Shown piece after piece: positions 20,642-44,858 of a stretch of 64,000 bases of DNA. The first letter of the stretch is position 1. The number at the start of each line of letters is the position of its first letter. The DNA comes from a virus, in IMG/VR virus record IMGVR_UViG_3300044716_000427, positions 7,566-71,565 of that record; one strand, written 5' to 3'. A program made the position numbers and the translations under genes. The notes beneath the pieces were generated by a model. It was not told the DNA's origin. It made no database searches and saw nothing but the letters and a program-made list of their open reading frames with translations.

Positions 20642-21979
20642 ATGTCACTTCAGTCCTATACCCAGAATGTGAACAACGCGCCCTTTGGCCTAGCCAATAC
20701 CAACGCGCCCGGTTCGCCCTATGCCGCTGCCTACGGTCGCGGTGTAACGTCTCACCTGATGCTGCCCGTTGCGCCGATCATCTTCGACGCGCAACCCCAG
20801 CAGTTCCTTGACCTTCAGTACCTGATGGCCTTCACCACCGAGGAGGCCCCCGGTGACGAGATCATGTGGCACGAGAACGTGTGGAGCCGTAGCCCCATCG
20901 TGACCGCATCGACCGCAGGCGGTGGTGATATTAGCGCCGTTGCCGCCACTCCCGGCGCTACTGTAACCGACACTTTTGTCGTTACCCCCGACTCCCTGAA
21001 CTACGTTTACGTTGGTCAGAAGATTCACTATACCGATGACACCGGCGTTCCTAACCAAGTAATCGTGTCGAACGTAAACACCGGAACCGGTGCCGTTACT
21101 GTTACCTCGATGGTTGGTGTTGGTATTGGCGCTCTCGTTGCAGGCAACGGTGCCAACCTGACCAACGGCATGACCGCCGGTGGTGATGGCTTCCAGACCT
21201 TCAGCAATCCTGTGCGTACCAAGACCATCCGCCGCACCAACCTCATCGAAAAGGTTGGCCCAGAGCAGATGATCTGGAACCGTCTGGAGCGCATGAAGTG
21301 GAAGAACCAAGCGCAGACCAACTTCATGGAGGTTGACATGCGTAACCTTCTGACCCAACTGAAGGTTTCCATGTGCCAGCGTATTTGGCTGGGCCAATAT
21401 GGCGAGGGTCGCGTTAGCTACACCAACGGCGGCGAGACGGCAATTGCCAAGTTCACCGAAGGTATCGTGCCTAGCATCATCAACAACGGCGGTGCCCTGT
21501 TGAACAGCACGATGTCCACCGTATGGGACGACATGACCACGGGTATCTTCCAGACCAACTTCGGTCCAGTCACCAACGAGCGCGTCATCTTCGGAACCCC
21601 CGAAATGCTCCACGCTTTGAACCTCAAGCAGAAGGCTGAGTTCGTGCGTTACAGCGCAGGTGACAAGATCTGGGATCTGGACTTTGAAGAGTGGCGCTTT
21701 GGTGGTCAGAAGATCACCCTCGTGCCCACGCAGATCTGGAACGACGCGGCCAGCTTCCCCGAGGAGTACGCCCGCCGTCTGGTGGTGCTCCAGAAGAGCA
21801 GCGTGAAACTCGTGACCATGCGTGGCGTGGCCATGATCAGCCAAGAGGCCAAGGTGTCGCAGAGCCGTACCAACACCACTCCGTTTGAGATCTACGATTT
21901 CGAGCGTTACACGGTGGAGGGCATGGTTGGCACCAAGGTGCAGAATGCCGCACAGAACTTTATTATCGACGTGGCCTAA
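20642..21979 (+). CDS. Major capsid protein
   Basis: 445 aa, strongly biased codons, A-rich leader, followed by a terminator; position after scaffold. Confidence 0.82.
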   Translation: MSLQSYTQNVNNAPFGLANTNAPGSPYAAAYGRGVTSHLMLPVAPIIFDAQPQQFLDLQYLMAFTTEEAPGDEIMWHENVWSRSPIVTASTAGGGDISAVAATPGATVTDTFVVTPDSLNYVYVGQKIHYTDDTGVPNQVIVSNVNTGTGAVTVTSMVGVGIGALVAGNGANLTNGMTAGGDGFQTFSNPVRTKTIRRTNLIEKVGPEQMIWNRLERMKWKNQAQTNFMEVDMRNLLTQLKVSMCQRIWLGQYGEGRVSYTNGGETAIAKFTEGIVPSIINNGGALLNSTMSTVWDDMTTGIFQTNFGPVTNERVIFGTPEMLHALNLKQKAEFVRYSAGDKIWDLDFEEWRFGGQKITLVPTQIWNDAASFPEEYARRLVVLQKSSVKLVTMRGVAMISQEAKVSQSRTNTTPFEIYDFERYTVEGMVGTKVQNAAQNFIIDVA

Positions 21980-28900: not shown

Positions 28901-30728
28901 CGTGTATAGCTTGATTGCGGCAGATGAATGGAGGTCTTCAAGCATGGAGCAATTTGTTGGAACTGTTCGGTTTGGTCAGTGGATTTCTGTTCTTGGCGGG
29001 GCCCCTAGCTTGGATGTGGCGGCTCCTTCAGATGGTTGCAGGATTCTTGTTCGCTACAATAGCTACGAGCCAATTCGATTCTTTGGTGGAGATTGCACCG
29101 TTTCTCCTAGCTTGGATGCTTTGTTTAATAGAAATTTTATGTATGGCGGAGATGGTTCTATATCAGGAAACGACCTCTCTAATTCATTTGCCGTAGATGG
29201 TCTTCCGATGCCATACAGAAGGTGGTCAAAAGCTTCCGGGTATGAAGTTCCTCTTATTTCGGCATTGCCAAGCGGAGAAAACATAGCAATGCCCGATAAC
29301 CTTCTATTTGGCCAAAGCGCAAAAAGGCAGTGGGCTGTTTATTGGGACGCTGAACAACGGTCCGCAATTAGGCACTCTTCAAGTTCGGCAAACGGGCCAT
29401 TTGAGTGGCCGAGAATTGGCTACTTGTTAAAGTGGGCCGGATCATGGAGTACAAACATAAATGATGATCTTTACTCGTACCCAACAGATGTAGATGGGTA
29501 TAACCTGAACGCAATATCAAATTCGGCGCTAGGTGGGTTTACTTTAGGTAGTTCAATCAATCCCAACTACATTAAGCAAGCCCCTGTGACTGGATTTGGT
29601 GTCCCGTTTGTAAGTTCGGGCGGCACCTTTGAGGAAAAGTTCTACTTCCCCACCGGGCTCATCGCTTCTGCCGAGTTCAATCAACTTGTACAGGATTCTC
29701 CAAGCTTGAGGACGTTCACCGAGCTGACCTTGAAGACCATCAGCGAGGAGAACGGGGAGATTAAGACCATCGCCTCTGCGCTGGCTGGCGGTGGCCGAAA
29801 CCTCTACGCATGGACCGACAACGGGGTATCTCGCGTCCTGACCAACAAGAACGTGCTTACGGGGGCCTCCGGAGAGCTTATCTCCACTCAAGCGGTAGAG
29901 AATTACTGGGGCGAGGAAATGTGGATCAGTCGGAACATTGGCATTCCTGATCAGATGTGGCAGGCGTTCGTCAAGGGCTACGCCCCAACTGGAGACGGGT
30001 ATGCGGACAACTTCTTCTGGGCCAACCGCAATAGCCTGTATCGCATGGTGGGTGACAGCATCATCGACATTGGTCGCGAGAAGTTCCTTGCGTATATGCT
30101 ACCAATCCTGCGTAACTATCCCCGTACCTATGTCCCGGGAACCAATGGCTTCTACAACGCCAAGTACAACGAGGCGTGGATGTCATTCAATGAGGTACTT
30201 GACGAGAACAACAAGGCGTCAAGGAAGTTGGTGGTCTTCAACCCCGAAATCAACGCTTGGAACGGGTTGTATACGTATGACTTTGATGGATACACTCAGG
30301 TGGGCAATGACGTGTTCGGTCACCGTGAACTACAAACCTTCAAGCTTGACCAAGGGTGGACCATCAATGACGCTACCCGTGAGGCGTCCATCACCGTGCC
30401 AATGGCCGTGGACAGGAACAACGACATGGACAGCTTTAAGGAGTTCATCCGCTGGCGCGTGGTTGGAAGCAAGCCTGACAAAATGCAGATCCTTGACCCT
30501 GACTTCGTGGTCATGTCCCAGATGCCCAATCCCTTGGTCTTCCCTATCAACCCGCTGTGGGTAAAAGAGTACGACGGATGGGAGGGATGGGCAGACAGGA
30601 CCCTTGCATCATACGATTCCCAAAGGAGACTCCCGCAAAAGCGTTATTTTTACCTTCGATTGATCTGGAACAGGGAGGAGGACGTCAATGCCACTTCTCT
30701 GAGTGGACAACTAAAACCGATAAAATAA
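25917..30728 (+). CDS. Tail nozzle/stabilisation (muzzle) protein
   Basis: 1603 aa; N-terminal KGVNTDVLPELMPEG...A.NVR, YQYALRY, C-terminal beta-propeller-like repeats; position after rings. Confidence 0.72.
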   Translation: MPKLLHFPWLRRLLNKGVNTDVLPELMPEGTAREAINVRPGSITGNAGGAEAIKGEDVVYTVPVEQPDPTGYVLIGSCTCNNRLVEFWASESFDFASSTFVPIVRVDGVVVAQSRNIPYVWNRPLQIAVADDFFGTSISANEDANGVVTGRGVVYPADHNSAPLYWDISQLLAFAQSTPQNPAYFGDNYQVGFNSVGLFNTPEFPIHTRNLEVAIGLPVGQYQYALRYVTPAGDRTNIGPWTPLITVPLNQSEIRPWEQSHYPAATTVGGVPEQPSPYGVEIRYRVDNIYGFSGIEVVRKKYNTADNIGTTEVVSITQIQPNENSVITFIDPSDAISDPIAVPDDEANIKIIAVNKPKSVEYSDRRITYANFETFPKIAADVEFIERDGRTIFPVTQGVCTRWFDPDYNPNGPNPRENESNYTYWNDGYSDPVNNTYLKSFMRGERYGIGVMFWNQYTEQSFVREVPLGSASVTNEGYQFPNRRDKRLGRSFVYSGGYQGVSNLSTVQASNDLTGTPGGVVFPTFEAFSQGSVRKNRPTGGGNGQPWSGFGDINRLIFDGSTFSPFGPTNPVVNPTPANNQTRLSQSPNRFGYTTAVENSGSYPTISWSPESAYQVGTASGQQPLTGNIWAPRHYALGGMIEGVSNIPSNTTVMSVMRTAPAGRVVAQGIACWRVGQTGNTPTSSESYTKDRNRLSVLIPDFKNAVVSQSIIDLFETNPSSFGIQFVSPLGFYTEQYSGATRLGGLRIIQSGASDFLSYAGVQWDNGQVVNNGLETDAYTVPSSDAQYVGYGAWRSDAGIASNVWSSEGGNRVFSISNVESITENQFTKWDITISEDIYNYQLAGSGTSVTSNSSSVKNWHEPWYVVNIVIDEAVIPNDSIDKYVETGYHIKTESCIGITPSQNQQDGIYQDFPLLNERRGDVYASYSSVIQAYPSSSPGDAEHNRYVYVDNGLGVKPWLCVTDNFYANVNALGILAALSTDGFFTMPDGVVIYGVYSLIAADEWRSSSMEQFVGTVRFGQWISVLGGAPSLDVAAPSDGCRILVRYNSYEPIRFFGGDCTVSPSLDALFNRNFMYGGDGSISGNDLSNSFAVDGLPMPYRRWSKASGYEVPLISALPSGENIAMPDNLLFGQSAKRQWAVYWDAEQRSAIRHSSSSANGPFEWPRIGYLLKWAGSWSTNINDDLYSYPTDVDGYNLNAISNSALGGFTLGSSINPNYIKQAPVTGFGVPFVSSGGTFEEKFYFPTGLIASAEFNQLVQDSPSLRTFTELTLKTISEENGEIKTIASALAGGGRNLYAWTDNGVSRVLTNKNVLTGASGELISTQAVENYWGEEMWISRNIGIPDQMWQAFVKGYAPTGDGYADNFFWANRNSLYRMVGDSIIDIGREKFLAYMLPILRNYPRTYVPGTNGFYNAKYNEAWMSFNEVLDENNKASRKLVVFNPEINAWNGLYTYDFDGYTQVGNDVFGHRELQTFKLDQGWTINDATREASITVPMAVDRNNDMDSFKEFIRWRVVGSKPDKMQILDPDFVVMSQMPNPLVFPINPLWVKEYDGWEGWADRTLASYDSQRRLPQKRYFYLRLIWNREEDVNATSLSGQLKPIK

Positions 30729-33216: not shown

Positions 33217-36200
33217 ATGAGAAATCAAACCAAGGATGACAGGTACATGATTGTAACCCTGCCCAATGGCAGGCAGATGGAAGTGCCTAAAAACGCGACC
33301 CAAGTACTGGTTGCAAAAGAGGCGATAGCGGCGGGGTACATTTCAGAGGAAGAGATGTACCGGGGCAACAAGCCACTTGCCGATGCAATGGGCTACAAGG
33401 GTCCGCGTCAGCAGACTCCGCAAGTGCAGGGAATTGAAGACCCAACATCTTCCACAGAGCCCTTTAGTGGCCCTTTTGGCTCCGCCCCCTCTTCCGAAAT
33501 GGGGCAAACTTCGTTAAATGGTTTCGAGGGGGAAGAGTCCTTGAAGCCGTCTTCTATTGGCTCGGCAGGTCCTGCGGCTGGTGCTCAAGGGCGCCTTTCT
33601 TTGTCTCCCGATGCTACGCAGTTTCAGCGAGGTCCTTCCGCAGTGGCTGGAACTCCTCCACCAGCCAAACAGCCGCCTCCTCCTGAACGGCCTCAGGGCT
33701 CAGTATTTATTGGACGCGATGGAAGGCGAGTTGAAATACCGCAAGATGGTACTACTCGTTTTGCAATGGGCGGAGGCAGGATGGTGCCAGTTACCCGGCA
33801 AGAAGACCCGTGGACAAAAAGTATAGGAGAGTTTCGGAACAAGTCACCAGAACTTTTGGCAAGGGAGGGGGTGTTTATTCGCGAGTATTTAAGGGGATTG
33901 GAATTTTATAAGGATTTTAATGATCAGTATTTAGAAAGGTCATCAAATCGATCAGATAAGCTAGAGCCAAGGCTACAGGCGCTGTATGATAAAGAAACGG
34001 GTAGGATTGCCGAAGAAACTGTAAAATGGAAAAAATATATTGAAAAATACGAGCCATATATTTCTTCAACAATAAGCCAAGACATAGATAAGTTAGCTTC
34101 TTCAGAAAAGGCGCGAGATTTTTATACTATTGACAAAAATGGAGCTATCGATGTTGACCCTCAAAAGGTTTCCAAATATGTAGACAATGCCTTGGCGGCC
34201 TATGGCGTGAAGGATACTCCGAATTTGGATATGCGAGACATGTGGACAAAGTCCGCAATGGCGTCCATTGAGTCTGTCGAAAGGCAAAAAGCGGGGATGA
34301 AGAAAGTCGAGGAGGCTTATGGCGAGGTTGAAAGCAAGTTGGTAAAGCCCCCTGATATTGATGCGCCGAGGAAGAAAATTGAATCTATAGCAAATAAGTA
34401 CAGCGAAAAAGCCAAGCAAGAAATTGACGCATTTGACAAGGATGTTGTATCCCCTCAGCGGCAGCAACTTGAAAGTGAGTACAATAATGCTTTTAGTTTT
34501 ATTCAAAAAGAAGCGGAAAAAATAGGCTCCATTTACTCTTCTGGTGGGATGAGTAAAGAGCAGTATGATGCAGCATATTCTAAATTAGAATCACAGGCAA
34601 AAGAGACGGAGGGCGCTTACAAGCAGAAGTACTCCGACCTTGTAAAGGCCGTTGAGCAAAGGGTCGCTTCCGTCAATTTTAGGTGGAACCAATCCTATCG
34701 GACAGAAGCTCAGGCCGAGCAAGATGCATACAATGCAAGCATAGATGCATTTAACAAGCAGCTTCAGGCCACATACGAAAGCCCTGAAGTTCGTTTGAAA
34801 ATAAAACAAGCGTACAAAGAAGGATATCAGCAGCAGGCCGAAAAAGAGCTAAGGGCTCAGGAAAGGTCCGACAAGGAGAGGTACGAGAAAGGCATTGATC
34901 CATTTGATATGAGTTCTGGTGTCGCCGCACTGGATAGGTACACCAATCCGTTTGCCACCATGCCCTTTAATCGCCAAATGGCAAGGCTGTCAGAGCGATA
35001 CGTAAAGGGCCTTTCAAGTGCTGTCAAATCCTTTGGCACCGCTCTTGGCTCTACCGACTTGTATGAAGTCGGTCTTGCCGGTGAGAATAAGTGGAATCTT
35101 CCGCAGCTTGAGAACAAGGGGATGAAAGACCTTGGCTCACTGGCTTGGTTTGAGAGGCAGGCGGAGCTTGGTGGGTATATGACGCCCGGTATCGGAGCCA
35201 CTGCCCTTACTGCCGCAGCAACTGCTCCTATGGGCGGCAGCGGGGCTGCTTTGACTGGAAGGTTCTTGCTCTCTGGCTTCTCTGGATGGGTAAGCGAAAC
35301 CGGGCAGATAACAGCGAGCGTTAGGTCCAATGTCCTTGAGGCTACTGGAAGCATTGAGAAGGCCAACAAGGCTGCGGAAAGGGCCTTTGACTCACAAGTT
35401 GCCATCTCTGCTTCGTATCTCCTTGAGGGCGCCCCGTTCATCAAGATACCGTTTCTGAAAGCAGGGAGGGTTATGTCCACTCTTACTGGATTTGGCGCGG
35501 AATACGGACAGGAGTTGTTTTTGCAAGAAGGACCACAGCAAATCGCTGAGAAGCGAATTATGGCAGAAGCCAAGGGCGATATCAAGCTCGGCGAAGGGCT
35601 TATGGCCGCTTACGACAACTTTTATCAAGGGGTTGCGGATATGATGGCCCCCGTAGAGACCATCACCGGCACCAAGCCAAGCGAGTTTGAGCAATTGGCT
35701 GTAGACCTTATCGGTATAGGTGGTATGGGTGCCGTTGGAGGGTACAGGGACGTTGGCGCTCGAAACAGGCAAACGGCCAATGACATAAAGTCATTGCTTG
35801 CCAACGATGTTATTGCAGAAAGAATAAAGAATGGAGACTTCCAATGGATAAATTCAATTGTTGAGTCTAGGGGAGAGGCGTTTGCTAGTTCTCTTGTTGG
35901 CCAGTTCCACGTTGCTGGGCAGATTACCAACGAGCAAAAGGTAAAGTTTGATAGGAACATTGAGTCCGCTGCCATTCTTCAGGATGACGTGCAGAGGCTT
36001 GGTCTGAAGGGTGATGAGGCCCTTGTTTACAAGGCTCTTGCCGGGAGAGCTTCGGCTGCTCTTGAAGTAGCTAAAAGCGAAGAGAAGGACATTATTAAAA
36101 AAGTACACGAGGCCGAGGCTAGGGAGCTTGAGCGTCAGATGGAAAGCATTGCCATGGGCAATGGGTTTACCGGAGCCGTAGTAACTACGCCCAATGGCAA

Positions 36201-37941
36201 GAAGATATTTATGGCCGAAAAAGAATTCAAGGATGCTGTCAATGACACTGAGTTCTTGGGCACAGTTGCAATGCTCGGGTTGCAGAGAAATGGCGGAATT
36301 CAGATAACTAACTATGGCCCCGGATCAGATGTGGCCCTTACTGAATTTTGGGAAAATGTAATTGAGGTGCAGAACGGGATGTCCAGAGACGTTGGCGCTG
36401 TCAATAAAAAATATGGAACCGTTGTTGACTACGTTGTAAACACTTCCAGCCCAGAACAGAGCGGCATAAAGGTCATGGCGGAGGGTCGTCCAGAGGACAA
36501 GGCCAATGCCGAAGCTTTGTTGCACAGGATTGGATATAATGTTATCGGGTACACGCCCCCTGCCAAGGTTGAGCCAATAACCGAAGAGGAGCTTGTAGCG
36601 GAGACCGTTAAATCAACAAAGCCAACTGCTGAAGCTCCTTCAGTTGTTGCAGAAGAAGAATTTACAATTGATGATGCCAAGGAGCTTGTTGGGAAGGTTG
36701 TTGAATATCGCGGGCAAGAGGGGTATCTAGATATTGATGAGGGCGGCAAAACTACGTTCACTGTCGTAGGTGGAGGCAAAATCTACGAGATAGGCACTGA
36801 GGAGGACATGCAAGCATTGGCCAACGTGACCGAGGTGCCCATCGATAACGTGGTCAACGAGGATGGCTCCATTACCATTGGCAACAAAACATTCGTGGCC
36901 GATATTGGAGCAGCAGACATCACCCGGGACAATGATGGAGGGATATACTCAGTTGAGATAGAGACCGATGATGGCGTCAAGACCTTCTATGGCGACTTGG
37001 CTGCGACCATCATTTACGAGAATCAGCTACGCACGGTAAGGCAGGATGAGAACCTTCTTGCTCAAATAGAAACAAACATCACTACAGATGCAGAAATCAA
37101 GTCCCTCATCGAACAAGAGCGAGACAAGCAAAAGCGTCGCCTCGCGAGGAGAAAAGCTAGAAAGGGCGCTAAGGGGCCTGTCTCCCAGCGCGAAACTAAA
37201 GGTACTAGAACTGGCGATGGAAAAGAGCAGGCAGCAGAAGTAGAGGGAGAGGCCAAGGATTGGACCAAGGAAGAGATGGACGAGTTTAATGCTCTGATGG
37301 AGCGGGAAGAACTTGACACCATTGAGAAGAGGATGGCTGATTTTGTGGCTGAGAACAAGAAACACTTCAGCACGACCAAGGGCGGCGTGAACACTATTCG
37401 CATGAAGGCGCCCAAGGCCGTCAAGAAGGCATGGGCCGACATGCAGGACACCCTTGAGTACAAGAAGCTTCGGGAAGCAGAACAAGAACAAACACCAACA
37501 GCAGATGCCGTACAAGAGCGAACAACAGAGGAAGTGGGCGCACAGCCCGTCGGGCCAGAAGTCACTGGGCAAGAAGGGGGTGCAGGAGTGGGACCGAGCG
37601 TCCAAGGGCCTACAGCTCCCCAAGCGGGCGGGCCGCAAGGGCAAGTAGCCCCTACTACCGAACCTGCTGCCGAAGGCCCCGTAAGGCCGGAGGCACCCGC
37701 AGGGCCAGCCCCCGCTACTGCTCCTACGCCCAACAAAAAGACAGTTGCCAAGATGAAGGACCTCGCCAAGGCGGAGAGTGGAACCGAGACCAATAATGAT
37801 AGCCGAAAAGCCAAGGCGCAGAAAAAAGTCGATGCGCTTCTTAATTCAGATGCTAGACTAATGGAAGTAAGAGATAACTTTGACAAAGCCGTTGAGGAAC
37901 TAGAAAAAGCAGGCAAACTTCAGGTAAGCTGCCGCAAGTAA
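33217..37941 (+). CDS. Giant internal virion/ejection protein (1574 aa)
   Basis: Coiled coils, central Gly/Ala hydrophobic segment, ends LQVSCRK. Confidence 0.75.
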   Translation: MRNQTKDDRYMIVTLPNGRQMEVPKNATQVLVAKEAIAAGYISEEEMYRGNKPLADAMGYKGPRQQTPQVQGIEDPTSSTEPFSGPFGSAPSSEMGQTSLNGFEGEESLKPSSIGSAGPAAGAQGRLSLSPDATQFQRGPSAVAGTPPPAKQPPPPERPQGSVFIGRDGRRVEIPQDGTTRFAMGGGRMVPVTRQEDPWTKSIGEFRNKSPELLAREGVFIREYLRGLEFYKDFNDQYLERSSNRSDKLEPRLQALYDKETGRIAEETVKWKKYIEKYEPYISSTISQDIDKLASSEKARDFYTIDKNGAIDVDPQKVSKYVDNALAAYGVKDTPNLDMRDMWTKSAMASIESVERQKAGMKKVEEAYGEVESKLVKPPDIDAPRKKIESIANKYSEKAKQEIDAFDKDVVSPQRQQLESEYNNAFSFIQKEAEKIGSIYSSGGMSKEQYDAAYSKLESQAKETEGAYKQKYSDLVKAVEQRVASVNFRWNQSYRTEAQAEQDAYNASIDAFNKQLQATYESPEVRLKIKQAYKEGYQQQAEKELRAQERSDKERYEKGIDPFDMSSGVAALDRYTNPFATMPFNRQMARLSERYVKGLSSAVKSFGTALGSTDLYEVGLAGENKWNLPQLENKGMKDLGSLAWFERQAELGGYMTPGIGATALTAAATAPMGGSGAALTGRFLLSGFSGWVSETGQITASVRSNVLEATGSIEKANKAAERAFDSQVAISASYLLEGAPFIKIPFLKAGRVMSTLTGFGAEYGQELFLQEGPQQIAEKRIMAEAKGDIKLGEGLMAAYDNFYQGVADMMAPVETITGTKPSEFEQLAVDLIGIGGMGAVGGYRDVGARNRQTANDIKSLLANDVIAERIKNGDFQWINSIVESRGEAFASSLVGQFHVAGQITNEQKVKFDRNIESAAILQDDVQRLGLKGDEALVYKALAGRASAALEVAKSEEKDIIKKVHEAEARELERQMESIAMGNGFTGAVVTTPNGKKIFMAEKEFKDAVNDTEFLGTVAMLGLQRNGGIQITNYGPGSDVALTEFWENVIEVQNGMSRDVGAVNKKYGTVVDYVVNTSSPEQSGIKVMAEGRPEDKANAEALLHRIGYNVIGYTPPAKVEPITEEELVAETVKSTKPTAEAPSVVAEEEFTIDDAKELVGKVVEYRGQEGYLDIDEGGKTTFTVVGGGKIYEIGTEEDMQALANVTEVPIDNVVNEDGSITIGNKTFVADIGAADITRDNDGGIYSVEIETDDGVKTFYGDLAATIIYENQLRTVRQDENLLAQIETNITTDAEIKSLIEQERDKQKRRLARRKARKGAKGPVSQRETKGTRTGDGKEQAAEVEGEAKDWTKEEMDEFNALMEREELDTIEKRMADFVAENKKHFSTTKGGVNTIRMKAPKAVKKAWADMQDTLEYKKLREAEQEQTPTADAVQERTTEEVGAQPVGPEVTGQEGGAGVGPSVQGPTAPQAGGPQGQVAPTTEPAAEGPVRPEAPAGPAPATAPTPNKKTVAKMKDLAKAESGTETNNDSRKAKAQKKVDALLNSDARLMEVRDNFDKAVEELEKAGKLQVSCRK
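37088..37243 (+). CDS. Overprinted 51-aa ORF in the +1 frame
   Basis: MQKSSPSSNKSETSKSVASRGEKLERALRGLSPSAKLKVLELAMEKSRQQK; A-rich leader. Confidence 0.45.
   Translation: MQKSSPSSNKSETSKSVASRGEKLERALRGLSPSAKLKVLELAMEKSRQQK
37505..37648 (+). CDS. Overprinted 47-aa basic protein in the +1 frame
   Basis: MPYKSEQQRKWAHSPSGQKSLGKKGVQEWDRASKGLQLPKRAGRKGK resembles small phage MP(F/Y)KS..Q...W....KG..LP proteins; A/C-rich leader. Confidence 0.7.
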   Translation: MPYKSEQQRKWAHSPSGQKSLGKKGVQEWDRASKGLQLPKRAGRKGK

Positions 37942-37953
37942 ACTTTAAGTACA

Positions 37954-38460
37954 ATGCCCGTAAAAACACCCAAAACACTCGATAAGCTGGTCGTATCCAA
38001 ACTCCTTGAGCGTCTCAAGGACGAGTACGATGCCATGTACTTTTACACCTCCGTAGCCAACTGGTGCCAAGGGAAGGGGTATGAGGAGGCTGCAAAGTTC
38101 TTCCTCAAGGAGGCGGATAATGAGAAGGGCCACGCCAACAAGATTGAGAAGTACGTCACCGACTGGAACGTGTTCTTTGAGCTCCCAACCATCGACCAGC
38201 CCAACAAGGAGTACCGTGGCTTGATCGACGTGGTGGAGCAAGCCTACGACATTGAGTACGCCCTGTACGAAGCCTACGAGGAGACATCCAAGGAGATGTT
38301 CTCCCTTGACCTGTGTGTGTTCGACTTCCTCACCCCGCTGCGTCTTGGTCAGAATGAGAGCGTGATCGAGTACAGCGACATGCTCAACGAGCTTCAGACC
38401 ATCGCTGCTGACGTAAATAGTTTCGCCCTCTACTACTGGCAAAAAGAGAAGTTTAAGTAA
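37954..38460 (+). CDS. Non-haem ferritin-like protein
   Basis: E24, Y31, E57, H60, E101, Q133 line up with FtnA ferroxidase ligands; four-helix length. Confidence 0.88.
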   Translation: MPVKTPKTLDKLVVSKLLERLKDEYDAMYFYTSVANWCQGKGYEEAAKFFLKEADNEKGHANKIEKYVTDWNVFFELPTIDQPNKEYRGLIDVVEQAYDIEYALYEAYEETSKEMFSLDLCVFDFLTPLRLGQNESVIEYSDMLNELQTIAADVNSFALYYWQKEKFK

Positions 38461-41400
38461 TGGCTTTGAACTGCAAAATCAACGAGCGCATCTTTACCTT
38501 TGAAGGTAAGGACTACAACTACAACGAGTTCCGTGCTTTGATGTACGATGGACTCCTTGAGCGCATCCCTGAACTTACTGCCGAGACCAAGGAGGCTCTC
38601 AAGACTGAGGAGGGGAAGGAGAAGGTCAAGAAGGAGGTTAGTCGCCGGGATGAGCTTAGCGGGCTAAAGAGGGGCGGGAAAAAGCCAAGCATAAATAAAA
38701 TGAAGTCTCCGCGTGAAGAAAAGGCGGAGAATGAGAATAAGATGGCCAAGACCGGCTCCAATAGGATGTCTGCTCACGGGGCCAAAAGATTGCTTGGGCT
38801 GATCAAGCCCAAGCTCAAGGTGGTTGAGTTTGCTGAGAACGAGGTTGATAAGTTCAACGAAACTTTTAAGCGCCTTAGCGGGAATACGGAGATTGTGGCC
38901 AGCAAGGAGTACGATGGCTTTTACGACTCTTCGGGCGATGGCACTGTGTATTTGATTGCAAAGCCCGGCCAACAGCGCGTACTTGCTCACGAGGTGATGC
39001 ACCCTGTGTTCAACGTATTGTTCAAGGGCAACCCTAAGCTGATGGATGACTTCTACGCCCAGATCAAGGCGGATGAGCGGCTCAAGAAGTACATTGAGTT
39101 CGGCGCCCGGTATGAGCCGGGAATGACCGAGAAGATGGAGGCCATCACTGATTTCCTTGGTGCTGTTGCCGACGGAGAGCTTGATGAGATATTCAAGAAA
39201 GACCCTTCGCTCAAGCAGATGGTCATCGACTTCATCAAGAAGTTGCTTGGGTACGTAGGGTTGTCCAAGGATGTTGAGATATCGGGGGACATGGACATGA
39301 TGACCCTTGCGGGTCTTATCAATGACGCAGTAAGGTACAATGCCCGCTTGCGAGTGGAGAACATCTCTGCCGAGCCGGAAAGCGGGGTATACACGCACAT
39401 CTTTGGCCCTACCGGCAAGCTGACCACTCAGGAGCGCGATGGCTTGGCTGCTGCTATGGCAGCGCATCAGAACGGGGCTACGCAGGAGGAGACCAAGAAG
39501 TTGAATGGCTGGTTCATTGGCCCAGACGGCAAATGGAGGAAGTACTCTGAGCCATTCCAAGCAAAGCTTATTGGCAGCCCCTCTGACCCTGACTGGATTA
39601 TTCCATTTGCATTTGACAAAGATGGAAATACCCTTCCCGGAACTGTGTTAGAAGACATTTATGACTTTCCTGAACTATATAAAAAATACCCATCCTTAAA
39701 ATACATCCCAGTAGAACTTAAGAATCTTACTGGTGACAATGAATTAGCCGCTGGACTTTTTACCGGCTTAAACATTGTGTTAAATAAAAAATATATAAAC
39801 AACGCAAACTCTTTATTAGAAACTATTGCTCACGAGGTCCAGCATGCTATCCAGCAAGAAGAAGGATTTGTTCTCGGCGCACAAAAAAAATATGCGTTGT
39901 ATTTGCTTAATAAAGAACAAAGAAAAACTTATGTAAATTATGTAAAAAATATACTTGATGCGGCTGAAAAGGAGTTAAATGATTACGGCAAATTAAACAA
40001 TTTTTTATCTCAAAAAAATAACAAAAAAGAATTAGTAGAAACATTTAACAAAATTGAGTACGCAGCTATTCAGATGGACTCTGGTCTGTGGGAAGAGGCT
40101 ATTGATGAATTGATTGAAAAGGCTTACGGGAAAGATTTTCAAAAAAAAGATATTTCAAAATATAGTGATATTAGGGCTGAAATTGAAAAAACAATAGAAG
40201 AAATACTTGAAAATGGCGCGACTGGTCAGGAGGTGATTGACTTAATGGCAAAGTCGTTTGGAAGAGGAATTATTGGAAATGTACAAGTAGCAAAACAATT
40301 CATAGAATTAGCAGAAAAAGACATTTACTCAAATACTCCAAAGTCAGTTGACTATCTTTTGGAAATTGAAAAAATTGCAAAAGACCATGTTGCGCAGATT
40401 GATTTAGATTATTTAGCTTATTATATGTCTTATGGGGAGGCGGAGGCAAGGCTTGCCGGTAGGAGGGTTGTTTCAGAAAAATCATCACAAAAAGAAGGGG
40501 AGACTATTTCACCGATTGAAAAATCCAAAAATTCTACAACCGAAGCTGGCAAAAAAATATTTGGTCAGCTATCCGTATATGCAGAATCCGATGTAAAAAT
40601 AGCCAATCAGCTTAGCAAATCAAAGGGCAAATCTTTTGTTGCTAGTATGGCGCTAGGAGCCGAGGGTGAGTTGTTCTTTGCAAAGAAGGCTCCGTCGGAG
40701 AAGAAGTTCATCCCGCAAGAGGAGCTTGACAATGCAATTGAGTCGGCCATCACTGAAGATGAGAATTGGTCGGCAATGAGCCAAGAAGAAAAAGCCAAAA
40801 TCGCATATGATGCGGCAAAAGCTTCGCTCAAAGAGGACTCTAACTGGTATCAAAAGCTTGATCTTGATGGGAAAAGAACTGCTTTGAAGGAGCTTCGCTC
40901 TGACATCTATTCATACCTTGGCGCAAAGATGCCGACCAAGGAGGAGGCAAGGGCAGAGAAAGAGGGGCGCAGGAAAGGTGTTGCCGAGGGTCGTGCAGAG
41001 GGAAGGGCCGAAGAGAAGAAGGCAAGCGAGAAGAAGCTGGAGCGAGAGAAGGAACTTCGCAAGGAGCAAAGGATTGAGCTCAAGGAGCAGATCAAGACCA
41101 TGCGCCAGCGCATGAACGAGCTCTTTGACAAGGTATATGAGGCGTCTAAAAAGGGCGCTATTGCTGGAGAAATCCATGGTCGTCGCGAAGAGCGCAAGAG
41201 GGCGGAGGCAGAATTGAGCAAGAAGCTTAATGCCGCCGAAGTAGAGAAGAACAAGCTGGCCCAAAAGCGCCTTATGCAGGGGTACGCCCAAGGCATTGCC
41301 GATGGAACGCTAGGAGGAGAAATAATTGGCACTCGTCGTGGCCGGAAGCAAGCGAGGCAGGAGATGTCCAAGGAAAGGAAGCAGTTCTCTGAACTGGTGA

Positions 41401-44400
41401 GGGAGTTGTTCTGGGACATAAATACCGGCAAGATGCTTTTGCGCGGCACTGTTGGTCGATTGCAGGCGTACTCCATTGGCAGGGCTGCTGCAATGGTTGA
41501 CCCGGGCAACCCCAAGCACATCGTCAAGTTCAAGGATATGGTCATTCGTATTCTTGAGAATGCCAACTATGCAGCAGACCTATCTGATGCCAAGAAGGCG
41601 AACCGAAAGGCACGGAAGCTATCGAAGTCCAAGGCGCTCCCACTAAACCACAGGGAGGCGCTTGCTGCACTTGCTGCGGTGGACGTTAGCATGATATCCG
41701 ACCCAAGGGAGTATGCTGACCGCGTTGTTGAGTACTTCGACATTGCTGTAAGCGTAAAGAAAGACCAGTACGAACAGCGTAACTCTTCTGAAATGGAAGA
41801 CTTCGCTGAGAAGCTTGTTCAGGAGAATATCGAGCAGTACAGGAAGCTCCTTATGGATGAGTACGGCTTGGACGACATTGGATATGTTGACCCGAAAGAA
41901 CTATATGACGCTTTGGAGAGCGGCGTATTTGATGCGGGCTACAAGGACATGTCTCAGGAGAAGAGGGAGGCGGTCAGGAGGAAGGTCAAGACCTCTGCCG
42001 AGTACGCCAAAATAGCCCTCGATGAGTGGATCAAGGACGCAAGGCTTCAGGGCGTTGTCGTTGGCCAAGAGCTTAGCCCGACGCAGAGCAGGATAGTGGA
42101 CAGGTTGGCGAAGGCTGATTTTGACAACATGGGCCTTCGTCAGATGATGCAGTACATCAAGGTTGTTGATAACATCGTGATGAACGACTCGTTCGACAAC
42201 GCTGAGAGGGCTGCTATTTTGGCCGACATATCTGCGAATCTCGAGGATGCGTTCAATAGCATCAGCCCTTCCACGGTAAAGGCGCTGAAGGGCATAAGGA
42301 TGCAGACCATGTCCATCGCCGACCTTAACCGGTATTTCTGGGGCCTTGATGGCATTTTCTCAGCCGTGCAAGAGAAGCTTGGCGTTGGCAGGTACATCAA
42401 CGCAAAAGAAAATTACAACAAAGCGATGAATGAAGTCGGTCAAAAGGTGACCGAGTTCTATCGAGGGCTATACAAAAAGGACCCTAACGCATTCTCAAAA
42501 TCTAGCATGGCGCTAGAGGGGGCCGTTGCGTATGTAATTCAGTCCATGCCCGGAATGTCGGCCATGAACGGATTTGAGGCTCGTAAAAAAATCCTGCTGG
42601 AGAACATCGCTGAGCTGTTAAAGCGCAACGACGCCAAGTACAGGGAGCAGGCGGAACTGCTTCAGAAGGCATACGATGAAGTAATTAAGGACGCAAAACT
42701 TCCCAACGAGCTACTTGGCAAATTGCAAGGCGCAAACCCTGCGATTTACGAATCCATTGAGTTCTTGATCAATGTGACCAAGCCGTACAAGGAAGCTATT
42801 CGCGAAAACTCCAGAACTCTTTGGGACGAAGGCGGAAATAGGGAGAGTGGAACTTGGGATGACCCTCACTATATACCTATCGCCTACACCAAGATAGCTG
42901 AACGAGCTACTGAGACCATTAACGAAGAAGATGTTCCGAAGGCAACTAAGACGATGCTCAAGACGCTTCCTCAGAAGCTTAAAGAAAGGGTTAGGTACAA
43001 TCAGCTTCCGGAGAACAAATTGATTGATCTGAACCCGAGGGGCGTGACTTTGTCATCGCTGAACAAAAACTTGTTCGATGCGATCGTTGGAGAGTCATTG
43101 ACCTATATCGCTGAGTTTATGGACACCCCGGGCGTTGCGGAAAACGTCTTTGGCGGCAATGACAACAAGGAATACTATCGCGAGAATTTGCACAGATGGG
43201 TTGCCAAGTATTATCAATCAGAGCGTCAGGATCAGGCGGGCAAGGTTATTAACAGGGCAATAAATGGAATGCGCGAAATGGCGGTTGCCGTTCGTCTTGG
43301 AACTGTTCTTCAGCCAATTAAGCAGATGCCAGAGGCCCTTATTCAGTCTGTTATCTTGACTGGCAATTTTGATGGGTTTAGCAATATGTTCAAGCTTGGC
43401 GGACCCATGAAAGAAAATGGGGCCATAGAGCTGATGTCAAAATATGCTATTGGCGATAGGGGCTCAACAATTGCCGGAAATGAGTGGGAGGGCATAATGT
43501 CCAAGCACTATCGCGATGTTGAAAGAGCCCTGCTTGCAAAGGGAGGCTCTGTGCCGGAAAAAACCTATAGATGGCTGCGCGGTGCCCTAATGAAGCCGTT
43601 GTCTGCGTCCGATGGCCTTGTGGCAAAGGCTGCATGGATGGCGCATTACGAATACCAAAGGAACAAGCAAGGGTTCAAGGTAAAGAGTTGGGATACTGAG
43701 GCTAATCAACACGACAGCGATACTCTTCGTCAGCAAGCGGCCATATACGCGGAGACCATGGTTGACTACACCATGGTATCCAGCGACCCGACAAAGGCAT
43801 CTGTATTTGCAACAAAGGGCAAGAGCTGGGGAGGGAATCTTGCTAAGGCTATGTTCTTTATGTTCTCTGGATTTTCTATTCAGTCTGCCTCAAGGTTGGG
43901 TTTGGACATGTCTGATCTATTCAGATATACAACTCAAAAGGCATCTGGAAATCCAAATGCAGATAAAATTGCTGCTGGAAGGTCATTTGCTTCGTTGGCC
44001 GCTCGGACCAGTGGGGCTGCTGTGTATTGGTCTACTGTTTCTTATTTGGTTCCAATGCTGGTCCAAGGCATGGCTAATATTTGGGTGGCCCTAGCAGAGC
44101 AAATGGATGATGACGATGACGATGACAAGACGTTTGAGTTCATCGTTACTGCTGCGATTGCAATGCGTTATGCTGGAATGCTCTATGGTGACGTTGAGCA
44201 GAGCATCACGCTTGCAGCGCAAGAAAAGTCCAAGAAAACGATTGAGAAGAAGCAAGAGATGCTTGTAACCGCCATTACTGGTGACAGTGGCAAGTACAAG
44301 GAGGCTATGGCTGGCGCGAAGGAGAAGGAGCTGTCCCAAAAGGCGCTGGACAAGTGGAATAGGTGGAAGGTGGGGTTCTTCTCCAGCTTGATTGGTGCAG

Positions 44401-44858
44401 ACGTGCAGATGACGCTGAATGCTGGAATTATTGATGGTATCAACTACGTCTCTTACGTCATGCACACGCAGGCGAAGGACCCGTCCACTATCGACAAGAA
44501 GGGCGGCACCAAGTCATTTGAAAGCTGGATCAAGGACCAAGAGAACCCTGTGTTCTATCGATACGAGTACAAGTATGGCAAAACCGTCATGGATGAGCAG
44601 AACATGGGTCTACTTGACATCGTATTTGGCATTTTGCCAGAGGCCAAGCGTAAGCTAGACAAGACTCTTGATATGTTTGATAAGGCCGAAGGGAACGAAT
44701 GGGACATTTTGCCCGGAGAGTCGGGGGAGGCGTATAAAAAGAGAATTTCGGAATACGCAAGGGAAAAAAGGGATGAGCAGCGAGGCGAGACGCGGAAGCC
44801 CAAAAAGACGGAAGGGGGTGGGCGATTTAAGTATTCTTCTTTTATACCAACGGAGTAG
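38460..44858 (+). CDS. Large polyvalent/ejection protein (2132 aa) with zincin-like and LPD23-like domains
   Basis: AHEVMH, GWFIGPDGKWR, AHEVQHAIQ..EGF, GEAEAR; GxxxG repeats; C-terminal hydrophobic segment. Confidence 0.8.
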   Translation: MALNCKINERIFTFEGKDYNYNEFRALMYDGLLERIPELTAETKEALKTEEGKEKVKKEVSRRDELSGLKRGGKKPSINKMKSPREEKAENENKMAKTGSNRMSAHGAKRLLGLIKPKLKVVEFAENEVDKFNETFKRLSGNTEIVASKEYDGFYDSSGDGTVYLIAKPGQQRVLAHEVMHPVFNVLFKGNPKLMDDFYAQIKADERLKKYIEFGARYEPGMTEKMEAITDFLGAVADGELDEIFKKDPSLKQMVIDFIKKLLGYVGLSKDVEISGDMDMMTLAGLINDAVRYNARLRVENISAEPESGVYTHIFGPTGKLTTQERDGLAAAMAAHQNGATQEETKKLNGWFIGPDGKWRKYSEPFQAKLIGSPSDPDWIIPFAFDKDGNTLPGTVLEDIYDFPELYKKYPSLKYIPVELKNLTGDNELAAGLFTGLNIVLNKKYINNANSLLETIAHEVQHAIQQEEGFVLGAQKKYALYLLNKEQRKTYVNYVKNILDAAEKELNDYGKLNNFLSQKNNKKELVETFNKIEYAAIQMDSGLWEEAIDELIEKAYGKDFQKKDISKYSDIRAEIEKTIEEILENGATGQEVIDLMAKSFGRGIIGNVQVAKQFIELAEKDIYSNTPKSVDYLLEIEKIAKDHVAQIDLDYLAYYMSYGEAEARLAGRRVVSEKSSQKEGETISPIEKSKNSTTEAGKKIFGQLSVYAESDVKIANQLSKSKGKSFVASMALGAEGELFFAKKAPSEKKFIPQEELDNAIESAITEDENWSAMSQEEKAKIAYDAAKASLKEDSNWYQKLDLDGKRTALKELRSDIYSYLGAKMPTKEEARAEKEGRRKGVAEGRAEGRAEEKKASEKKLEREKELRKEQRIELKEQIKTMRQRMNELFDKVYEASKKGAIAGEIHGRREERKRAEAELSKKLNAAEVEKNKLAQKRLMQGYAQGIADGTLGGEIIGTRRGRKQARQEMSKERKQFSELVRELFWDINTGKMLLRGTVGRLQAYSIGRAAAMVDPGNPKHIVKFKDMVIRILENANYAADLSDAKKANRKARKLSKSKALPLNHREALAALAAVDVSMISDPREYADRVVEYFDIAVSVKKDQYEQRNSSEMEDFAEKLVQENIEQYRKLLMDEYGLDDIGYVDPKELYDALESGVFDAGYKDMSQEKREAVRRKVKTSAEYAKIALDEWIKDARLQGVVVGQELSPTQSRIVDRLAKADFDNMGLRQMMQYIKVVDNIVMNDSFDNAERAAILADISANLEDAFNSISPSTVKALKGIRMQTMSIADLNRYFWGLDGIFSAVQEKLGVGRYINAKENYNKAMNEVGQKVTEFYRGLYKKDPNAFSKSSMALEGAVAYVIQSMPGMSAMNGFEARKKILLENIAELLKRNDAKYREQAELLQKAYDEVIKDAKLPNELLGKLQGANPAIYESIEFLINVTKPYKEAIRENSRTLWDEGGNRESGTWDDPHYIPIAYTKIAERATETINEEDVPKATKTMLKTLPQKLKERVRYNQLPENKLIDLNPRGVTLSSLNKNLFDAIVGESLTYIAEFMDTPGVAENVFGGNDNKEYYRENLHRWVAKYYQSERQDQAGKVINRAINGMREMAVAVRLGTVLQPIKQMPEALIQSVILTGNFDGFSNMFKLGGPMKENGAIELMSKYAIGDRGSTIAGNEWEGIMSKHYRDVERALLAKGGSVPEKTYRWLRGALMKPLSASDGLVAKAAWMAHYEYQRNKQGFKVKSWDTEANQHDSDTLRQQAAIYAETMVDYTMVSSDPTKASVFATKGKSWGGNLAKAMFFMFSGFSIQSASRLGLDMSDLFRYTTQKASGNPNADKIAAGRSFASLAARTSGAAVYWSTVSYLVPMLVQGMANIWVALAEQMDDDDDDDKTFEFIVTAAIAMRYAGMLYGDVEQSITLAAQEKSKKTIEKKQEMLVTAITGDSGKYKEAMAGAKEKELSQKALDKWNRWKVGFFSSLIGADVQMTLNAGIIDGINYVSYVMHTQAKDPSTIDKKGGTKSFESWIKDQENPVFYRYEYKYGKTVMDEQNMGLLDIVFGILPEAKRKLDKTLDMFDKAEGNEWDILPGESGEAYKKRISEYAREKRDEQRGETRKPKKTEGGGRFKYSSFIPTE

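Follow-up and report, generated by a model that had tools for sequence, protein, structure and literature searches.

A short open reading frame (ORF) at positions 37505-37648 of the 64,000-nucleotide window of viral DNA analysed here is, with good confidence, a true gene that codes for protein and is contained, in the +1 frame, within a giant cargo-like gene of a crAss-like phage (Table 1). The candidate gene belongs to a very large family of small basic proteins, most of whose members are encoded by independent genes, and the pattern of substitutions across the overlap shows purifying selection acting on the small frame and not on the host frame. A sequence-only reading of this DNA had proposed a true nested gene at this position; its homologs and the purifying selection on its frame bear that proposal out.

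The nested reading frame and its giant host

Translation of the window places the ATG of the nested ORF at 37505 and its TAG at 37646-37648, and returns a peptide identical to the one originally claimed. The ORF lies wholly within an ORF of 1574 amino acids, on the same strand and in a different frame; since the two starts are 4288 nucleotides apart (37505-33217), a distance of the form 3n+1, it occupies the +1 frame of its host. An alternative upstream in-frame start, TTG 37454, would yield a 64-amino-acid version of the protein. The 47-residue product (P0001) is strongly basic (net charge of about +10), is devoid of Cys, and lacks a signal peptide, a lipobox and a hydrophobic N-terminal stretch; its AF2 model (pLDDT 79) displays helices at residues 6-12 and 15-33. 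Alternative-frame ORFs of 30-64 amino acids are common around the nested gene and, given the existence of one of 51 amino acids at 37088-37243, the length of the nested ORF is unremarkable by itself; it is the homology and the substitution pattern presented below that set it beyond chance.

Table 1. Coordinates of the nested gene, its host and neighbouring features (positions in the window)
Feature	Coordinates	Strand	Description
crAss muzzle-like gene	25917..30728	+	Pfam PF25731 crAss_MUZ, E 7.5e-14, 51.2 bits (cut-off 27)
Host giant ORF (P0002)	33217..37941	+	1574 aa; reads the nested gene in the -1 register; cargo-like/ejection-like by position only
Nested-gene leader	37476..37504	+	A/C-rich, G/T-poor; inside the host coding sequence; likely Shine-Dalgarno-independent initiation region
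Host-frame passenger/linker	37504..37752	+	Host residues about 1430-1512; first 48 codons set by the nested gene, then a Pro/Ala-rich linker
Nested small gene (probable)	37505..37648	+	47 codons plus TAG; predicted basic two-helix protein of the 'MPYKS...EWD..SKG..LP' family
Conserved helical C-terminal host module	37753..37941	+	Same frame as the host N-terminal part; helices in the AF2 model
Ferritin-like gene	37954..38460	+	Pfam PF00210, E 2e-18
Second giant ORF	38460..44858	+	2132 aa; L087, L088 and L089 carry the nested gene inside its orthologs

The context for calling the phage crAss-like is the muzzle-like gene found 2.5 kb upstream of the host giant ORF, and the host itself can be described as a crAss-like virion cargo or ejection protein by position only. 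No Pfam or PHROG family matched the 1574-aa host protein. Its homologs in L091 and L090 are 22-46% identical where alignable, and its C-terminal module matches the ends of the counterpart genes of L084, L086, L090, L091 and L089 at 39-57% identity. When viral contigs were searched for close relatives of this protein, a single-protein query retrieved none, and a two-sequence alignment re-found the two L002/L003 contigs only. Judged by eye only, the giant hosts in the relatives contain a zincin-like HExxH motif as well as a segment resembling ParB. Downstream, the ferritin-like gene is 77-88% identical to those of relatives by blastn (81-93% at the amino acid level), and the giant gene directly 3' of it, whose N-terminal 36 amino acids are 56-61% identical to those of relatives, gave weak, sub-threshold hits to eCIS-core and LPD23.

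In the host frame, the nested gene reads as DAVQERTTEEVGAQPVGPEV... and is followed by a Gly/Pro/Gln/Ala-rich stretch. Over the overlap, the host-frame peptide of nested forms has a net charge of -2, no Cys and a content of 74% G/P/Q/E/S/T/A, and this tuned composition (no Cys, net charge -2) is seen in nested forms only. A single-sequence AF2 model of host residues 1330-1574 renders the overlap and linker as coil with a pLDDT of 43-51. Both the composition and the model agree with the earlier suggestion that the host frame here degenerates to a disordered linker. The host register is free of stops in 19/19 nested sequences (18/18 plus L090) versus only 4 of 75 free-standing relatives (mean of 4.03 stops) and 0 of the 34 with a GC content below 0.45.

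The position of the nested gene varies among relatives. L087 and L089 carry it inside the neighbouring giant gene rather than in the counterpart of the 1574-aa ORF, and in other close relatives its place within the giant gene differs. The gene together with its leader would behave as a cassette. Between 3 and 5 lineages show nesting, with the register identical every time; the family tree, built on 45 columns, is poorly resolved.

The MPYKS family and selection in the overlap

The family to which the nested protein belongs, referred to as MPYKS and defined here by alignments A1 and A2, consists of proteins of about 45-65 amino acids with an N-terminal M-P-Y-K-S, Q8, H13, E28-(W/F/Y)-D30, S33-K34-G35, L38-P39 and a Lys/Arg-rich tail; the invariance of Met1 and of 'MPYKS' is in part a matter of ascertainment, the database patterns and regular expressions used having demanded them. 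P0001 carries all of the invariant columns of both alignments, which also establish as real the MP(Y/F)KSxxQ...W...KGxxLP pattern that the sequence-only reading had ascribed to free-standing phage genes. When run against the phage genome, the A2 profile matched the nested protein at E 6e-24, and all nine candidates of 47-66 amino acids proved homologous to it (E 3e-21 to 1e-4). At E<=1e-3, profile searches collected 324 family representatives and, among 5,548 candidates, 3,795 small-protein clusters of 24-147 amino acids, most of them from phage-sized contigs. Confirmed family loci number 308 in viral contigs and 354 in metagenome contigs. In 146 of the 160 fetched loci the profile hit begins at Met1 with no more than 135 amino acids to the stop, and most relatives in the fetched contigs are free-standing genes. 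Stand-alone homologs, whose absence was to count against the nested gene, thus exist in large numbers. The same module is found in frame within 337 proteins of 148-2000 amino acids (E<=1e-5), where it adjoins DUF5661, DUF6321, GP88, NUDIX+VTC or GNAT and where Lys or another residue precedes the Pro; one natural variant, P0012, joins the zincin-like N-terminal part of a giant host to module residues 12-47.

This very large family has no name in any source, and no Pfam, PHROG or PDB entry. Neither the 47-aa nor the 64-aa version of the nested protein hit Pfam or PHROGs, 46 family members produced noise only against the same two collections, and a PDB profile search with the family returned 0 hits, as did a Foldseek search against the PDB. 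A fold search of BFVD yielded nothing significant (best E 0.27). Searches of 50,697 deposited phage records by tblastn (three family members) and blastn (2 kb) were without a match, low-complexity filtering and the short queries being limiting, and a literature search found no paper on the MPYKS family or on its nested arrangement. Judged by language-model features, the named cluster closest to the family is DUF3008 (PF11450) (0.89; DUF3008 is present in 37% of the cluster's members, all viral), which also annotates one weak BFVD fold hit (rank 15, E 6), but the nested peptide has no match to the DUF3008 HMM at E<=10 (gathering score 24 bits), nor do the 46 family members at E<=1 or the phage genome at E<=10; the link is only a lead. 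We note that P0041, a 2,953-aa protein credited with '21 stretches' in the profile search, was dropped as a false positive, being a low-complexity repeat protein. Because standard gene callers skip genes lying wholly inside others, the MPYKS gene is absent from annotation exactly where it is nested.

Simple Nei-Gojobori counts were used to compare the two frames of the overlap. Among the seven close relatives of clade A (21 pairs, 41 codons), the small frame has a pN/pS of 0.054/0.411 = 0.13, against 0.164/0.032 = 5.1 for the host frame. The seven low-GC sequences of clade B give 0.12 versus 1.89, with differences distributed 97/74/331 over the three small-frame codon positions. The window and L003 differ at 17 sites, which fall 4/1/12 by small-frame codon position, and Ser5 is encoded by AGC in the window and by TCG in L084, the two peptides being identical. 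Two natural variants within the ORF in an RNA-library contig (GGC>GGG and TAG>TAA) change nothing in the small-frame translation, and each alters the host-frame residue. The small frame is intact in 8/8 aligned close sequences, the window included, so that the stops in close relatives named beforehand as a ground for rejection are not found. The blastn conservation islands shared with relatives comprise only the small ORF with its leader, whose island coincides with the boundaries of the nested ORF, and the ferritin-like gene. In the overlap, the constraint lies in the small frame. Both frames are nonetheless maintained, the small one at the amino acid level and the host one as a stop-free frame of tuned composition.

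Proposed initiation of the nested gene and competing explanations

The A/C-rich leader quoted in the sequence-only reading, aacaagaacaaacaccaaca, is present at 37481-37500, and the blastn islands common to the relatives begin at 37476-37503. It had been likened to the leader of the MCP; the 445-aa ORF at 20642 does have the most A/C-rich leader of the window, but its identification as MCP was not recovered (0 families). The nested ATG has an unpaired probability of 0.766, ranking first among the 256 ATGs of the two giant genes (the least structured leader), and by leader composition it ranks 42 of 883 ATGs, a good score that is not unique. With reference gene starts taken as simple longest-ORF calls, none of 29 leaders of the phage's genes contains a Shine-Dalgarno-like motif; two high-GC loci, L036 and L007, do have GGAG motifs of this type upstream of their nested ATG. 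A scan of 36800-38600 for internal promoters and terminators revealed nothing above shuffles. Short contigs from three RNA sequencing runs cover parts of 36900-38200, including 37460-37613 and 37554-37828; these are assembled contigs that give neither strand nor transcript ends and may reflect DNA carry-over.

We propose that the internal ATG is a separate entry point for ribosomes on the mRNA of the giant gene, presumably via the unusually unstructured A/C-rich leader and free of any Shine-Dalgarno motif, like the other genes of the phage. The giant protein would be made in parallel, the same 144 nucleotides being read as an acidic to neutral Gly/Pro/Gln linker between folded parts; the giant frame across the overlap is kept open and compositionally harmless. 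In this register, the synonymous third positions of the small gene fall on first positions of host codons, such that Lys, Gly and Glu codons can be read as Glu/Gln/Gly/Pro and not as stops, Cys or an Arg-rich run.

Independent initiation has to be weighed against the possibility that the module is reached only by programmed +1 frameshifting of ribosomes translating the giant frame, which would produce a truncated giant protein ending in the module. The frequency of in-frame fusions of the module to larger proteins, and P0012 in particular, make such an arrangement conceivable, yet we hold it to be very unlikely. The ATG is retained in 19/19 nested sequences, unlike in the fused forms (a count partly ascertained by the search patterns, which required Met1), and small-frame stops located 4 codons (L003) and 3 codons (L047) upstream of it leave almost no space for a shift site. 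Moreover, the leader differs between clades, that of the window has no slippery site of the X-XXY-YYZ type by eye, and GGAG motifs precede the ATG of L036 and L007.

An equally improbable explanation is that the giant ORF really comprises two genes, with the small gene free-standing between them and the open host frame incidental. An in-frame ATG at 37753 could indeed start a 62-aa C-terminal module, a gene caller divided the host ORF of a relative in the same manner (P0281 inside P0282), and the host frame is under no amino-acid-level constraint in the overlap. Against this stand the stop-free register of the nested sequences and its rarity among free-standing relatives, the tuned composition peculiar to nested forms, the approximately 330 further same-frame host codons that follow the nested gene in L003/L091 and the approximately 2,000 in L087 and L089, and a conserved 40-aa host N-terminus upstream of the nested gene in clade B. 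That the ORF arose by chance and has no product is less credible still, and next to negligible. While the abundance of alternative-frame ORFs of similar size and the silence of Pfam and PHROGs would fit such a view, it is already contradicted by homology and selection, namely by thousands of homologs that are mostly independent genes, by low small-frame pN/pS values in two clades and by a conservation island matching the ORF boundaries. An embedded gene translated from its own ATG accordingly is the reading we prefer.

Possible roles and relation to known systems

In phage lambda, the spanin gene Rz1 is embedded in the +1 frame of Rz, and the lipoprotein it encodes sits in the outer membrane and cooperates with Rz in lysis. 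The present arrangement is comparable in that a longer gene of a tailed phage contains, on its own strand and in its +1 frame, the whole of a shorter one, both presumably being read from one mRNA. The nested protein differs from Rz1 in having no Cys, signal peptide or lipobox; its host, moreover, is a giant cargo-like protein, and the module is found elsewhere too, both in thousands of free genes and as a domain read in frame. Small viruses are known to have overprinted genes, as exemplified by the internal genes of phiX174, with which the nested gene shares dual coding, asymmetric selection and a short, basic product of low complexity. Here, however, strong conservation falls to the embedded member of the pair, which is widely found un-nested and seems to move between hosts, and these properties favour the capture of an existing gene over de novo birth. 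A bolder reading would have the family born by overprinting in the linkers of giant proteins and escaping later as free genes.

The polyvalent proteins known from phages and conjugative elements (Iyer et al. 2017, PMC5512222) offer another parallel, in that the MPYKS module likewise stands in frame in long multi-module phage proteins; the motifs noted by eye in the relatives' hosts and the weak hits of the 2132-aa ORF may add to this likeness. No Pfam LPD family matches the module in the nested peptide or the 46 family members, and a term search of that paper gave nothing relevant on nested or overlapping genes ('overlapping' and 'frameshift' occur 0 times, and 'nested' twice, for a protein hairpin fold). 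In PhicrAss001, the genes that follow the muzzle gene encode proteins that become packaged within the capsid or tail and are ejected (PMC10172136), and the gene order there, a muzzle gene followed by medium and giant genes, resembles that of the window. No sequence family, however, joins the 1574-aa host to gp45-gp50, and the passages of PMC10172136 on these cargo proteins make no mention of a nested gene.

Clues to function come from the fused and free copies. The neighbours of free-standing copies include portal, terminase and adaptor genes, an association with packaging modules that rests on a minority of copies, most neighbours having no annotation. Given the in-frame fusions in virion-packaged multi-module proteins and the tendency of free copies toward packaging and head modules, we tentatively suggest that the nested protein might be made with, and act beside, proteins of this kind. 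It would then be a virion-delivered partner of cargo proteins, whose most likely activity would be to bind nucleic acid, a packaging partner or a cargo partner. The DNA-condensing role raised in the sequence-only reading would be a speculative one, its single direct support being the net charge of about +10.

It is also possible, though we regard it as rather doubtful, that phages encode a 45-residue module interchangeably in three forms, namely a gene of its own, a bead read in frame within giant multi-module virion proteins and an out-of-frame gene hidden inside those giants, the last being a relocating cassette of leader plus ORF restricted to the +1 register. Such a cassette could move within the same giant gene or to the neighbouring one with its register fixed, and would survive only in the +1 register because in no other could the host read a basic peptide rich in Lys and Gly as a harmless acidic Gly/Pro/Gln linker. 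If so, nesting would release the factor as a separate polypeptide and yet keep it genetically welded to its cargo gene.

A family of thousands of clusters has thus gone nameless in Pfam, PHROGs and the PDB, and its nesting in at least three lineages in one fixed register is a natural experiment on the tolerance of dual coding. The arrangement lends itself to clean genetics, as changing the ATG to ACG would destroy the nested start while keeping the host Asp codon, and hence without altering the host protein. The proteins that host the nested gene belong to the most poorly understood class in crAss-like and other phages, giants that are presumably packaged or ejected, and the nested gene may provide a handle on a factor that probably acts with them early in infection or during packaging.

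Identity of the nested ORF and its family

A 47-residue basic protein had been proposed from sequence to be overprinted within a giant ejection protein. This proposal was confirmed and extended by our analysis: the nested gene is real and belongs to a large unrecognised family of small phage proteins (the MPYKS family). The peptide originally read is the letter-for-letter translation of the small ORF, the leader quoted for it was found at 37481-37500, and the host frame across the overlap indeed reads DAVQERTTEEVGAQPVGPEV... before entering a Gly/Pro/Gln/Ala-rich run. The small ORF begins at position 2 of a host codon, which places it in the +1 frame relative to its host; this frame is open upstream to a TTG at 37454, from which it spans 64 aa. 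Another alternative-frame ORF (51 aa, 37088-37243) lies nearby; ORFs of this size are ordinary here and the case therefore rests on comparative evidence. Phage genes that enclose a whole short gene in their +1 frame are a known kind of arrangement, as exemplified by Rz1 in Rz of lambda and the internal genes of phiX174. The small protein differs from Rz1, however, in having neither Cys nor a signal sequence. A term search of the polyvalent-protein paper PMC5512222 returned nothing relevant on nested or overlapping genes.

Coordinates of the nested ORF and surrounding features in the window
Feature	Coordinates	Strand	Description
crAss muzzle-family match	25917-30728		PF25731, E 7.5e-14, above cut-off
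Host ORF	33217-37941	+	Uninterrupted, 1574 codons, encloses the small ORF
Nested small ORF	37505-37648	+	ATG to TAG, 47 residues
Ferritin-like gene	37954-38460		168 aa, PF00210, E 2e-18; between two giant cargo-like genes
Second giant ORF	38460-44858	+	2132 aa

The peptide matched nothing in Pfam or PHROGs even at E<=10. In a 5.8-billion-protein collection, the single peptide matched nine of nine candidates of 47-66 aa (E 3e-21 to 1e-4; closest match 94% identical), and an exhaustive scan of 50%-identity representatives yielded 324 proteins at E<=1e-3. A 46-member profile then retrieved 3,795 clusters at E<=1e-3 among 5,548 candidate small proteins (24-147 aa), with no name or Pfam domain among the 120 clusters listed, and 337 longer proteins (148-2000 aa) at E<=1e-5 among 8,000 scored. 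Confirmed loci numbered 308 in viral contigs and 354 in metagenome contigs. Eighty loci were examined from each of the two contig scans, and 146 of these 160 profile matches start at profile Met1 and stop within 135 aa, bearing out the statement in the sequence-only reading that free-standing genes of this kind exist. The remaining 14 lie in frame within longer ORFs, as N-terminal or internal domains. Within longer proteins, the module neighbours DUF5661, DUF6321, GP88, NUDIX+VTC or GNAT domains, with weak matches to 2'-5' RNA ligase-like, GNAT and kinase-like domains also adjoining it.

Conserved positions of the family are M1-P2-Y3-K4-S5, Q8, H13, E28, D30, K34-G35 and L38-P39, the invariance of MPYKS partly reflecting scan patterns that themselves included this motif. 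One candidate member, protein P0041, was rejected as a low-complexity false positive. No copy was found by tblastn in 50,697 deposited phage genomes, the profile matched nothing in the PDB, and a literature search found no description of the family or of the nested arrangement. The nearest named cluster by language-model features was DUF3008 (0.89), a lead only, without confirmation in HMM tests.

Selection and reading register in the overlap

Substitutions in the two frames were compared among close relatives. Over 41 codons of the seven clade A sequences (the window, L084-L087, L089 and L091; 21 pairs), pN/pS was 0.054/0.411 = 0.13 in the small frame and 0.164/0.032 = 5.1 in the host frame; in seven sequences of a second clade, B (GC 0.33-0.35), the ratios were 0.12 and 1.89, with pairwise differences of 97/74/331 over small-frame codon positions 1/2/3. 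The 17 differences between the window and locus L003 fall 4/1/12 over these positions. Nested peptides of seven close relatives are 83-100% identical over 47 residues, and that of L091 shows 92% identity over residues 1-36; the window encodes Ser5 with AGC and L084 with TCG, although their peptides are identical. An RNA-library contig carries two variants within the ORF (GGC>GGG and TAG>TAA), each of which leaves the small-frame product unchanged and alters an amino acid in the host frame.

When nine relatives were compared with the window by blastn, only two conserved islands emerged, namely the ferritin-like gene and the small ORF with 2-29 nt of its leader (starts at 37476-37504, ends at 37609-37698). 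Host-gene matches beyond these islands were limited to two in L090 (~68% over 762 columns and 73% over 86) and, in L085, 72 columns in the Pro/Ala linker directly 3' of the small ORF. Host-protein identity ranges from ~22% (L091) to 46% (L090). In an alignment of eight close nested sequences, window included, conservation collapses right after the stop codon, which is TAG or TAA and unchanged in position in seven of the eight.

Of the 93 distinct small-ORF sequences captured by pattern, 18 lie in a frame that stays open for 250 codons or more and were taken as nested. The host frame reaches at least 662 codons in the 16 loci not cut short by contig ends, those of L092 (381) and L151 (400) running off the contig; L090, missed by the pattern, is also nested (1,230 open codons). 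All 19 share one register, with a host codon beginning 1 nt before the ATG and zero stops; the other register is stop-free in 3/18. Among 75 free-standing sequences, the nested register is stop-free in four (mean 4.03 stops) and the other in 24; for the 34 with GC below 0.45, the counts are zero and eight. We take the shared register to be the outcome of a filter. In the nested register, the synonymous third positions of the small gene are host first codon positions, so that AAR, GAR and GGN codons can be read by the host as Glu, Gln, Gly or Arg and not as stops. The host-frame peptide across the overlap of nested forms has a net charge of -2, no Cys and 74% G/P/Q/E/S/T/A; the other register would read +15 with ~2 Cys.

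Hundreds to thousands of open host codons surround the nested gene on both sides: ~880 before and ~330 after it in L003/L091, ~320 before and ~2,000 after it in L087 and L089. A conserved 40-aa host N-terminus precedes it in clade B; in the window, it is followed by the Pro/Ala linker and a helical C-terminal module 39-57% identical in relatives. Host residues 1330-1574 were modelled by AF2 from a single sequence; the model, of low confidence overall (mean pLDDT 54), renders the overlap and linker as coil flanked on both sides by helices.

Probable translation start and genomic setting

The ATG is kept in 19/19 nested forms, with the caveat that the search patterns required Met1; fused in-frame forms carry Lys or another residue ahead of Pro. 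In-frame stops four (L003) and three (L047) codons upstream leave almost no room for an N-terminal extension or frameshift entry. The mean unpaired probability of positions -20 to +5 at the window ATG is 0.766, ranking first of 256 ATGs in 33300-44800 (mean 0.42, SD 0.105) and exceeding all 23 reference gene starts; its leader composition ranks 42/883. AGGA, GGAG or GAGG motifs occur in none of the 29 leaders of long ORFs starting within 8000-57000, the nested one included. These leaders are A-rich and G-poor, which presumably fits a host with Shine-Dalgarno-independent initiation of the Bacteroidota type. At the high-GC loci L036 and L007, a GGAG-type motif lies ahead of the nested ATG. Free-standing members in Shine-Dalgarno-using phages (L040-L044, L074 and others) have strong AGGAGG-type leaders, and the leader conserved among nested members of low-GC clade B is A/T-rich ('aagatttatcaaaattaaaacc...'); the type of leader thus follows the translation system presumed for the host. 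Near the nested gene, neither promoter-like nor terminator-like signals rose above shuffles, so that it is most likely read from the mRNA of the giant gene. Elsewhere, in-frame ATGs at 38700 and 42426 in the second giant ORF and 37753 in the host ORF rank 3rd, 2nd and 8th of the 256 for lack of leader structure, and may be internal starts giving shorter isoforms.

The virus record (71,565 bp) has a CheckV completeness of 100%. Downstream of the muzzle-like gene lie, in order, ORFs of 186, 636, 1574 (host), 168 (ferritin-like) and 2132 aa. According to passages of PMC10172136, genes past the muzzle gene of PhicrAss001 encode packaged cargo and RNA-polymerase-associated giants. As the 1574-aa protein matched no Pfam or PHROG family, only synteny speaks for labelling the host an 'ejection protein'. 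The second giant ORF has sub-threshold matches to the eCIS core (zincin-like) and LPD23 families near residues 320-470, and relatives have an HEVMH motif in the N-terminal part, a pattern that would fit a polyvalent-protein-like giant. The ferritin/Dps-like protein is 81-93% identical among relatives while the flanking giant genes have diverged almost past blastn detection. Parts of 36900-38200, including 37460-37613 and 37554-37828, are matched at 90-99% identity by short contigs from three metatranscriptome libraries that come from different studies, and DNA runs containing this region are labelled lake or fresh water.

Recurrence, mobility and possible role

Inside giant phage genes the nested gene recurs, always in the same register, and it switches host genes among close relatives. 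On a poorly resolved tree of 45 columns, the nested/free label requires five changes, at least three of them forced by well-supported branches, a pattern matched by 0/500 shuffles. Nested lineages comprise clade A with L092, clade B, and the high-GC loci L007, L036 and L151. Within clade A the position of the cassette is not fixed: in the window it starts at residue 1430 of the 1574-residue host; in L091, directly after the segment aligning with window residue 1065; and in L087, L088 and L089, ~320 codons into the ortholog of the second giant gene, this ortholog being called by its N-terminal 36 aa (56-61% identity) and its place directly after the ferritin-like gene. The first giant gene of L089 ends with the usual C-terminal module, and its last ~800 codons contain no copy.

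Two further sequences are of mixed make-up. P0012, a protein clustering with P0282 (the L085 host ORF), is a natural deletion variant in which the zincin-like N-terminal 289 aa of a giant host protein is joined in frame to small-protein residues 12-47; this joint could reflect either true recombination or faulty assembly. L085 itself (2,467 nt) has ferritin-like sequence at both ends and a hybrid 662-codon ORF that starts like the 2132-aa gene, ends like the 1574-aa gene and carries the nested gene mid-way; visual inspection also points to a ParB-like segment in this host. Chimeric misassembly, or recombination of the genome, may account for the contig.

An AF2 model of the small protein from 46 sequences (pLDDT 79) shows helices at 6-12 and 15-33 and a disordered Lys/Arg tail, with no significant fold match; its net charge, counted from sequence, is about +10. 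The genes immediately beside free-standing copies are mostly unannotated, the annotated ones being chiefly packaging and head genes. Upstream (59 scanned) are portal PHROGs with three, three and two members, possibly overlapping, P22_portal (three) and SU10_portal (two) by Pfam, several large-terminase PHROGs, HNH endonucleases and one structural-protein PHROG (three members); downstream (60 scanned) are several small-terminase PHROGs (one member each), portal (two), adaptor and tail proteins. Because of these neighbours, the in-frame occurrence of the module in multi-module proteins and the nesting in cargo-like giants, we tentatively favour a small protein that is produced together with packaged or ejected proteins and works next to them. 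Its activity would be binding, either of nucleic acid or of a partner among the packaging or cargo proteins, and the putative DNA-condensing role raised in the sequence-only reading is compatible with such a function.
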